Source: a virus (Duplodnaviria > Heunggongvirae > Uroviricota > Caudoviricetes). From it: DNA of 13,439 nt. The stretch is taken from the IMG/VR virus record IMGVR_UViG_3300029653_000151, positions 1 through 13,439 of that record; one strand, given 5' to 3'. Shown piece by piece: positions 500 to 8,963 of the stretch; the stretch's first letter is position 1; the number at the start of each line of letters is the position of its first letter. A program made the translations under genes and the position numbers. The notes below the pieces were generated by a model that searched no databases, was not told where the DNA came from, and saw only the letters and a program-made list of their open reading frames with translations.

Positions 500-602
500 G
501 CAAGGCAACTAAGCCTGCATTAATGCCAACTTTTAGCGCACGGCTCTCTCCCAAGAGCCATTTCCCTGGACCGAATACAGGAATCGTATTCGGTCTTTTT
601 TT
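500..602 (+). ncRNA. sdsR: SdsR (RyeB)-like small RNA, about 103 nt, ending in an intrinsic terminator
   Basis: Sequence gcaaggcaactaagcctgcattaatgccaactttta...ccaagagcc...ggaccgaatacaggaatcgtattcggtcttttttt matches my recollection of enterobacterial SdsR; a sigma-S-type -10 (ctattct, 486-492) lies 7 nt upstream; a 10-bp perfect hairpin plus T8 run at 569-602 forms the 3' end. No protein-coding signal. Confidence 0.55.
569..602 (+). terminator. Rho-independent terminator (10-bp perfect stem gaccgaatac / gtattcggtc, 7-nt loop, T8 tail)
   Basis: Perfect inverted repeat 569-578 / 586-595 followed by ctttttttt (595-602). Confidence 0.8.
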
Positions 603-733
603 AATTGTATTTAAAATCAATCAGTTGCAAACGTCTTCCCGAAATTCCCCGAAATTTACTCGAATTTCTGTATTCCGGTCTTTTTTGGTTATATCACAAC
701 CAAAATACATTTAACAATCCATTTACGTTAAAA
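603..733. other. Candidate prophage attachment region (attL side), between the sRNA terminator and the integrase stop
   Basis: Integrase 3' end abuts this interval, as attP abuts int in lambda; it holds tandem cgaaatt-type direct repeats (about 640-668) and a partial copy of the SdsR terminator arm (gtattccggtctttttt, 663-679). The exact core cannot be set without the other prophage end. Confidence 0.3.
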
Positions 734-6916: not shown

Positions 6917-7324
6917 AATTATCTCCATTTTTACAAATGAATTTTGTCGATGCGGTGCCTGGTGCCTCCAGGTGACGTTAACCAGTTAACAATTAACGCC
7001 GGATAATCCACCCATAACACTGATGCTTTTAACTGTGCCGCGTGCGCTTAGCCGCATTCACTGCATCACAAAATTCACTTTAAAAAGGGGCGGCAGGGCA
7101 GCCACGGAGTAGAACTGATGCCGCCAAAGACTACACATAGCAATGTCGTTATTTACAACCGGAGGCGCACTCCCACCATTTAAATTTAACAGACAAGAAC
7201 GACTCTTTATGGATATCGGAAATGCGCCTTCGTGTTGTGCCCGGTTTTATTTCACCACCTCCGGGCTTTGGTGGTTTCTGCTATACCCCTACAGCGAGAA
7301 TATTGAATTAATCCAAATAATGGA

Positions 7325-8541: not shown

Positions 8542-8963
8542 AAATCAGGCATAAGCACATCGAATCAGTGTTGTTAGCCCTGGCAGCCGAAAAAGGGCAG
8601 GCGTGGGTCGCTAACGCAATTACTGAAGAATATCTGCGCCAGGGGGGGGGCGGCGAATTGCCCCTTATACCAGGCAAGGACTGGAACAATCAGCAGAATA
8701 TCTATCACCGTTGGTTGAAAGGTGAAACGAAAGCGCAAAGGGAAAAAATTCAGAAACTGATCCCTGCGGTTCTGGCAATTCTTCCGCGCGAGCTGCGTCA
8801 CCGACTCTGCATCTTCGATACCCTGGAACGCCGTGCATTACTGGCGGCGCAGGAAGCGTTGAGTACGGCAATTGATGCGCATGATGATGCAGTCCAGGCC
8901 GTTTACCGGAAAGCACATTTCAGCGGTGGTGGGTCGCCCGGCGATTCTGTCGTAGTGCATTGA
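8538..8963 (+). CDS. ydaT: YdaT-like protein (141 aa)
   Basis: Position directly after ydaS with ATGA overlap; length matches the roughly 140 aa I recall for K-12 YdaT. Contains a G9 homopolymer (8642-8650) encoding Gly-Gly-Gly-Gly. Confidence 0.65.
   Translation: MKIRHKHIESVLLALAAEKGQAWVANAITEEYLRQGGGGELPLIPGKDWNNQQNIYHRWLKGETKAQREKIQKLIPAVLAILPRELRHRLCIFDTLERRALLAAQEALSTAIDAHDDAVQAVYRKAHFSGGGSPGDSVVVH

Follow-up and report, generated by a model that had tools for sequence, protein, structure and literature searches.

The window under study, i.e. the whole stretch of 13,439 nucleotides, starts with yebY, the first entry (1-342) in the list of open reading frames of this 13.4-kb sequence. 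It is followed on the plus strand by sdsR (ryeB), the gene of a small RNA, at positions 503 to 602, which matches the Rfam family RF00111 over its full length (1-100) and with 118 bits against a gathering score of 38. The antisense RNA SraC/RyeA is located on the minus strand, where the part covered by Rfam (RF00101, 180 bits) extends over 462-606. Two minus-strand genes lie further to the right: int (734-1810; Pfam PF09003, PF22022, PF00589) codes for a lambda-type tyrosine integrase of 358 amino acids, and xis (1776-2063) for the excisionase (Pfam PF07825, E 6.5e-14), which is also named excisionase in the annotation of NZ_CP166713. The window is the E. coli yebY-sdsR/ryeA region, continued from about position 604 by a lambdoid prophage.

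We further report that the antitoxin RNA RalA (2168-2346, with ralR) and the DicF RNA (7088-7139), both found with Rfam, form a Rac/Qin-like early region together with recET, kilR and ydaT-like genes. This early region is joined to a different integrase and att site, pointing to a mosaic lambdoid prophage; the integrase and att site presumably differ from those of Rac in K-12.

To locate the border between host and phage we compared the window with all 5426 complete E. coli genomes. Positions 400-603 are matched by every one of them (5426/5426), and the match continues into 604-1000 on the integrase side in 228. The segment 604-733 taken by itself is found in exactly 228 of the 5426 genomes, only in those which carry this int, and 5198 are without this P' arm. 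Checked against prophage-free genomes, as the initial annotation had suggested, 604-733 is absent at this locus and is therefore not native host sequence. In strain CEA601S, which is identical to the window, the prophage measures approximately 45.6 kb and lies between yebY-sdsR and pphA. Its far end (attR) reads ttgacgaaaACAGGAATCGTgttcggtctctttttatctg, in longer context ...ttgttgacgaaaACAGGAATCGTgttcggtctctttttatctg..., followed by the pphA flank. The empty site (attB) of K-12 reads GACCGAATACAGGAATCGTGTTCGGTCTCTTTTTATCTG, and in the longer context of the K-12-type site ...GACCGAATACAGGAATCGTGTTCGGTCTCTTTTTATCTGTTAAAAGCC..., leading on to pphA. The prophage is bounded by an attL and an attR, with empty sites in related strains.

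The joined phage site (attP) was found in two records of the phage collection, PP818812 (pPE4) and OK490361, where P arm, core and the window segment 604-733 are contiguous. PP818812 is 96% identical to the window over 604-1810, while in the second joined-attP record, Salmonella ZC-S1_prp, the int DNA is 73% identical. The order in PP818812 and ZC-S1_prp is P arm, GACGAAAAC AGGAATC GTATTCGGTCTTTTTTTAATTG..., the equivalent of 604-733, and then int. The segment 604-733 is the phage P' arm. The comparison of attL, attR, attB and attP places the crossover in the sdsR terminator and makes all features between 604 and 686 internal to the P' arm of the phage. We consider it very probable that a lambdoid prophage with a Rac-like early region has integrated into the intrinsic terminator of sdsR (ryeB), that 577-733 is its attL junction, and that its P' arm carries lambda-like sites. 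The proposal that an att region lies beside int is borne out by the same comparison.

Two observations concern the records themselves. PP818812 is labelled 'Actinobacillus phage vB_Apl-pPE4', and yet 96-97% identical to the E. coli prophage in integrase and arm; the Actinobacillus host label appears doubtful, as the attP there suits the enterobacterial sdsR terminator. On the P-arm side of Salmonella ZC-S1_prp (L004, 1-369) the effector gene sopE is located at a distance of about 2 kb from the attP core.

The terminator hairpin of sdsR consists of two perfect 10-bp inverted stems (569-578 and 586-595) with a 7-bp loop between them, an arrangement typical of the cores used by tyrosine recombinases. 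This hairpin is the attB core, and its stems are the inverted core-type sites. The left half-site (B/C position; 569-578, plus strand) reads GACCGAATAC, is host DNA and serves also as the 5' stem of the terminator; in attP its place is taken by GACGAAAAC. The right half-site C' (GTATTCGGTC) together with the T-run (586-603, plus strand) is phage-derived and identical to the attP of pPE4. Between them lies AGGAATC (579-585, plus strand), the loop of the terminator, which we infer to be the 7-bp overlap (strand-exchange) region because it lies in a block that is identical in all four att sites. In the following, base 582 as the center of this overlap is position 0. The identical block comprises the 11 bp of ACAGGAATCGT (577-587) in attL, attR, attP and attB, and the exchange took place inside it. 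Judged from the sequence and by analogy, the exact cleavage positions would flank AGGAATC. The overlap of about 7 bp between the inverted core-type sites is the same in attP and attB.

Downstream of this block attL differs from the host. Positions 588 and 597 are A and T in the window, compared to G and C in K-12 and in attR of CEA601S. At attL, positions 588-603 with the sdsR 3' stem and U-tail are phage DNA and rebuild the gene, so that the phage supplies approximately the last 15 nt of sdsR. The initial annotation had assigned the rebuilding of the target to a second copy of the terminator arm further to the right; it is the first copy (586-603) that does so, matching attP and differing at 588 and 597 from attR and K-12. 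In the phage-supplied segment 586-603 the terminator stem is perfect, a U-A pair replacing the U-G wobble of K-12, and the run of U is continuous (U7 compared to UCU5 in K-12).

In the P' arm the IHF consensus AATCAATCAGTTG is located at 615-627 (+33 to +45, plus strand), the sole WATCAANNNNTTR match in the 13.4-kb window. By sequence this is a candidate site for the bending protein between the core and the P' arm sites, equivalent to H' of lambda. It is followed by three candidate arm-type Int sites on the plus strand: P'1 (CCCGAAATT, 638-646, +56 to +64), P'2 (CCCGAAATT, 648-656, +66 to +74) and P'3 (CTCGAATTT, 659-667, +77 to +85). These are the three tandem cgaaatt-like units described in the initial annotation, and they are real: none of 200000 Markov sequences contained a triple repeat like the one at 638-667. 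With Tandem Repeats Finder a period of 10 is obtained for 638-656, and the pattern CYCGAAWTT has five matches in the window compared to 0.85 expected, three of the five being the tandem units at 638-667. While the features were described correctly, the block starts at 638 and not at 640.

On the other side of the core, the P arm in the attP of pPE4 and in attR of CEA601S contains GTCCCGAAATT, TTCTCTAAAAA and ACTCGAAAAAA with an 11-bp period between approximately -151 and -120, the outermost site lying at about -150. In the family, P arms carry two or three tandem xxCCGAAxx units between approximately -153 and -120, which are clearer in some members than in others. The check for the same repeats near attR thereby came out positive, as the motif occurs in the phage arm beside it. 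Arm-type repeats are located on both arms, tens of bp from the core, and are kept across 29 diverged arms.

The protein that would bind these sites is a full-length homologue of lambda Int. It aligns with lambda Int (5j0n/1z1b) with an E-value of 5e-72, residues 8-353 corresponding to residues 10-348, and it possesses an N-terminal arm-DNA-binding domain (PF09003, 28.1 bits at a cut-off of 22), a core-binding domain and a catalytic domain. This three-domain build is the same in lambda Int at 38% identity. Further points in common with lambda are xis beside int, int beside the P' arm, and a core made of an inverted repeat around a 7-bp spacer. The spacing of the sites agrees as well. The IHF site at +33 to +45 corresponds to lambda H' at +32 to +44, P'1 (+56 to +64) to +51 to +63, P'2 (+66 to +74) to +64 to +74, P'3 (+77 to +85) to +75 to +86, and the outermost P-arm site (about -150) to lambda P1 at -145. 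Based on sequence and on this analogy the repeats at 638-667 are very good candidates for arm-type Int sites, their positions fitting lambda P'1-P'3, as the initial annotation had supposed.

If the analogy holds, IHF bound at 615-627 would fold the P' arm back onto the core. The arm-binding N-domains of Int would occupy the three 10-11-bp repeats at 638-667 and the three similar units of the P arm, while the C-terminal domains of the same arm-bound molecules would bind the core. The resulting intasome could carry out integration and, with Xis, excision.

Several features deviate from lambda. The target is the terminator of a small RNA compared to the gal-bio intergenic site, and the arm motif is CCCGAAATT compared to CAGTCACTAT. 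Unlike in lambda, the arm motif of this phage is similar to the core half-site (CCGAAT). In the P arm there are three direct units in tandem, whereas P1 and P2 of lambda are separated and oppositely oriented, and because of this arrangement the intasome of this phage may differ from that of lambda in detail. A further difference is an additional C'-like box after P'3, for which reading the lambda attP sequence beyond P'3 revealed no equivalent.

This box is the second copy of the terminator arm. GTATTCCGGTCTTTTTT at 670-686 equals the 16-mer GTATTCGGTCTTTTTT (586-601) plus one inserted C, with a distance of 84 bp from start to start. It comprises the C'-like box proper, GTATTCCGGTC (+88 to +98), and T6, on the plus strand, and is kept in the phage P' arm as the 'duplicated terminator arm'. 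The near-repeat of the SdsR terminator 3' arm and U-tail had thus been recognized rightly, and among 200000 Markov sequences of 130 nt, 6 contained a copy as good as this one. Its location is 670-686 rather than the 663-679 given at first, and an end of the feature at 682 would cut the copy, which runs to 686. The statement that a matching 5' arm is missing is correct: no local hairpin was found at the second copy, the fold of 630-700 having -8.5 kcal/mol and a z-score of -0.09, and a terminator scan, whose only find was the sdsR terminator at 568-596, gave nothing at 670-686. What is present there is a U-run without a hairpin. If the longer segment 560-700 is folded, the second copy pairs with the 5' stem of sdsR in a read-through RNA, with a z-score of only -1.56.

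We scanned viral contigs for the core, which gave more than 100 junctions. After removal of near-duplicates, 29 P' arms with less than 85% identity were aligned. Outside the core, the columns that remain conserved belong to the IHF site (TCA...TTA), to three CGAAA cores spaced by about 10.5 bp, to the C'-like box, and to a GTTATA[TC]CA / ACCATAACA box. The flanks of the arm repeats vary by subfamily (CCCGAAATT, GTCCGAAAAT, CACGAAAAT, CCACCAAAATT), which is the pattern expected if they co-evolve with the N-domain of Int. A copy of TATTCGGTCT with at most two edits occurs at an offset of 92-97 in 25 of the 29 non-redundant arms, compared to a chance expectation of 0.03 per slot; in two control slots it occurs in 0 of 29 arms. 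Here the offset is counted from the start of ACAGG..., and 92-97 corresponds to 83-86 bp from C'.

The C'-like box is present in the attP of the phage records, and several arms have the exact core sequence in it, e.g. TCGTATTCGGTCTTTTT in L086. In two arms (L087, L096) the repeats have drifted while the box is still core-like. One subfamily has a degenerate box (TATCCTGTCT), and the extra C of the window is missing in some close relatives. The box also occurs in the Flyfo siphovirus, whose Int is 50% identical, and in prophages of Serratia, Yersinia and Pantoea at yebY-sdsR. It was not found in an unrelated integrase family which uses the same sdsR core (L047, L048, L038). The int stop codon and the box are immediately adjacent in most subfamilies.

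Every relative that could be placed on a locus targets the same sdsR core. The genome scan for relatives gave only two close loci, and the profile scan of viral contigs close relatives only. A protein search led to relatives with 60-74% identity, of which the fetched ones from Serratia, Yersinia and Pantoea are located at yebY-sdsR with the same core and box. Some members show peculiarities of their own. The class-A arms (L007, L019, L118 and similar) have an extra TTTTCGGTCT-like motif at approximately +43 to +52 (offset 48-57 from the core start), just ahead of P'1, so that this subfamily has core-like motifs on both sides of the arm-repeat triplet. In L019 two sdsR cores (556-575 and 8867-8886) are 8.3 kb apart, indicating tandem elements at the hot spot, and a microsatellite with at least seven GGAAAC copies lies directly in front of the second core. 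In L211 (1880-1940, minus strand), a relative with an Int of 69% identity, the terminal part of a leucine-rich-repeat effector-like gene stands in place of the P' arm. The switch occurs exactly at GGTCTTTTTGG of the box, and the segment downstream of it is present in duplicate; as there are Ns in this record, an assembly error is possible. The integrase of a Rahnella contig (L131, protein P0096; 64% identical) does not adjoin yebY/sdsR and possibly has a different target; we looked for the att site of this integrase and did not find it. On the same contig an ORF of 488 amino acids resembling a membrane protein converges on the integrase, and GTTATTCATT[CA]TAG is repeated about 270 bp apart.

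Integration at this site affects the RNA encoded on the opposite strand. Through the insertion of the prophage, the native promoter and 5' end of ryeA come to lie on the attR side. The -10 box of ryeA in K-12 lies approximately 45 bp to the right of the sdsR end and reads TATGGT (the reverse complement of ACCATA), as taken from the promoter-mutation primer PM_RyeAF (PMC6610125). In the window, TGATATAAC (688-696, minus strand) is a candidate extended -10-like box reading leftward, 7 nt upstream of the C'-like box, and its sequence suggests that it could act as a promoter. Its offset from the core is 111-116, the ryeA -10 box of class-A relatives and of K-12 being found at 107-112; among the arms the GTTATA[TC]CA box is conserved at an offset of about 110. 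The promoter scan reported another leftward match, TTTGCA-16-TACAAT (604-631, minus strand), which overlaps the IHF site; one match compared to 1.2 expected in shuffles is not significant alone.

The K-12 sequence from the ACCATAACA box on to pphA can be aligned by MAFFT with the stop region and last codons of class-A integrases, ...KYLDARGAEYVMV*. Comparing the K-12 sdsR-pphA spacer to the phage arms by blastn gave one weak match (E 1.8e-4), and reading this spacer as a fossil int end rests mainly on the MAFFT alignment and on codon-level inspection. On this basis the native ryeA promoter, and perhaps pphA too, may be a prophage fossil. A K-12-type spacer in L001 (1706-1840) aligns with the P' arm end and last int codons of L015, L126 and L087 save for a deletion of about 36 bp, and there the K-12 ryeA -10 (TATGGT), which was defined by experiment, falls at the ...YVMV-stop codons of the integrase. 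In the window itself, 687-733, downstream of the int stop, contains in the int frame a short stretch ending in ...ILVVI-stop. The stop region of this stretch and the int stop region of the relatives have roughly equal offsets from the core. The stretch resembles what would be left of an earlier integrase C-terminus after replacement of the int 3' end. In the subfamily of the window int ends approximately 50 bp further right than in most subfamilies.

Which role the second copy plays can be discussed on these grounds. The initial annotation took it to be the att core, i.e. a duplicated sdsR 3' end that marks the crossover and rebuilds the target, and indeed 670-686 is a near-exact copy of the sdsR 3' arm with its U-tail, positioned between sdsR and int. 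The host/phage junction, however, lies at 587-603 and not at 670. It is ACAGGAATCGT plus the first copy that attL and attR have in common, attR has the core only with no second copy beside it, and 604-686 is contiguous phage DNA in the attP records. The second copy lies 67 bp deep in phage DNA, at a distance of about 90 bp from the crossover. A core duplication repeated at the other end of the prophage is found for the first copy, not for 670-686, so that the comparison of the four att sites refutes this assignment and leaves it with practically no probability. Almost as improbable is a weak intrinsic terminator on the plus strand, formed by P'3 and the box, that would stop transcription reading through from sdsR, or coming from phage late genes across attP, ahead of its antisense passage into int. 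Several relatives do have an inverted repeat of P'3 and box (CCGAAT-N6-ATTCGG) followed by a T-run, and sdsR read-through transcripts exist in K-12 (PMC6610125). In the window, however, the stem is reduced to 5 bp with a bulge, the segment 630-700 folds no better than shuffled sequences (see above) with the terminator scan negative there, and class-A relatives are without the T-run. A terminator at the second copy was rejected for these folds at shuffle level and the negative scan.

An unlikely reading, though one to be taken more seriously, is that the second copy is a relic without function, left behind by a former attP core or by tandem integration at this hot spot and since passed on with the phage arm. 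The sdsR site is occupied repeatedly and sometimes in tandem, as by the two cores of L019. Relics also seem to persist here, since 687-733 resembles an older int 3'-end leftover, and the box is imperfect in several subfamilies. Yet it keeps the same offset in 25 of 29 arms despite diverged neighboring spacer columns. It is found across Int subfamilies of only 50% identity in hosts from Escherichia to Yersinia and Pantoea, and in class-B phages it is non-coding and nevertheless better conserved than its flanks. The box could instead work at the level of RNA or promoter: a leftward promoter in the P' arm would replace that of ryeA, the box would form the first 11 nt or so of a prophage-specific RyeA, and the 5' end of this RNA would repeat the SdsR terminator stem. 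The K-12 ryeA -10 box aligns with the class-A int stop region, TGATATAAC, 7 nt upstream of the box, has been kept with an offset close to that of this -10 box, and lysogeny of a ryeB-integrating Salmonella phage reportedly alters the 5' part of ryeA with RyeA down and RyeB up (PMC7380047). On the other hand, the hexamer TATAAC is without the near-invariant final T and the promoter scan is silent on it. K-12 RyeA works without a recognizable box, and the minus-strand fold is ordinary (z-score -1.0). The unrelated integrase family at the same sdsR core has no box, an argument that the box is tied to the Int clade and not to the function of sdsR/ryeA. We assign a low probability to this role at the RNA or promoter level.

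Rather than a crossover scar, 670-686 is a C'-like box, conserved and located outermost in the P' arm at a distance of eight helical turns (84 bp) from C'. It belongs to the attP of this Int clade and appears to be under some constraint. As the box abuts the int stop codon in most relatives, its conservation could also be inherited context. With low confidence we suggest that it may be an accessory Int-binding site which holds the core-binding domain of the P'3-bound Int, or else an inverted partner of P'3. A more far-reaching proposal combines three elements: the box would be a working fifth Int-contact element, i.e. a clade-wide core-type half-site, the P' arm would give RyeA its 5' end and promoter in lysogens, and the K-12 ryeA promoter would be a fossil of a phage int 3' end. 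We put this combination forward tentatively, being possible but rather doubtful as a whole.

The attachment site as such is of a known kind. Balbontin 2008, as cited in PMC7380047, PMC3333887 and PMC3603311, describes the final 23 bp of ryeB as a hot spot for the attachment of phages. The site found here falls within it: the exchange block 577-587 sits 15-25 nt from the sdsR 3' end, and ryeB is regenerated. The Salmonella hot spot used by PhiW104 (Balbontin et al. 2008, J Bacteriol 190:4075) is the same site, the last ~23 bp of ryeB and internal to ryeA, and there, too, integration restores the 3' end of ryeB with phage sequence and exchanges the 5' part of ryeA. A ryeB-integrating Salmonella phage reportedly changes the ryeA 5' part, with less RyeA and more RyeB in lysogens (PMC7380047). 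The hot spot is taken by many different elements, as was also seen in our junction scan of viral contigs. In contrast to PhiW104 the element described here is a prophage of E. coli whose early region is Rac-like. A copied 3' end of a gene for a structured RNA also forms the attP core of phages integrating into tRNA or tmRNA genes, where the recombinase site is a symmetric stem and phage bases likewise regenerate the gene at attL; here this regeneration becomes visible as two SNPs. The difference is that the target is the Rho-independent terminator of an sRNA, and that with ryeA on the opposite strand integration also strips the promoter and 5' end from ryeA.

While a lambda-type attachment site at a published hot spot is ordinary, the present analysis maps attL and attP at base resolution in a widespread family of prophages, which is found in 228 of 5426 complete E. 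coli genomes and has relatives in Salmonella, Citrobacter, Serratia, Yersinia and Pantoea. In lysogens the sdsR 3' end is phage-made and the ryeA promoter region is exchanged for another, a point of relevance to how SdsR and RyeA are regulated there. The perfect stem and the U7 tract should lower sdsR read-through, which drives pphA in K-12, and should shield int from antisense transcription. The conserved C'-like box raises the testable question of how this Int clade builds its intasome. If the box were indeed a working Int-contact element, it would represent a feature outside the lambda model that is kept across a deep clade of sdsR-targeting integrases.
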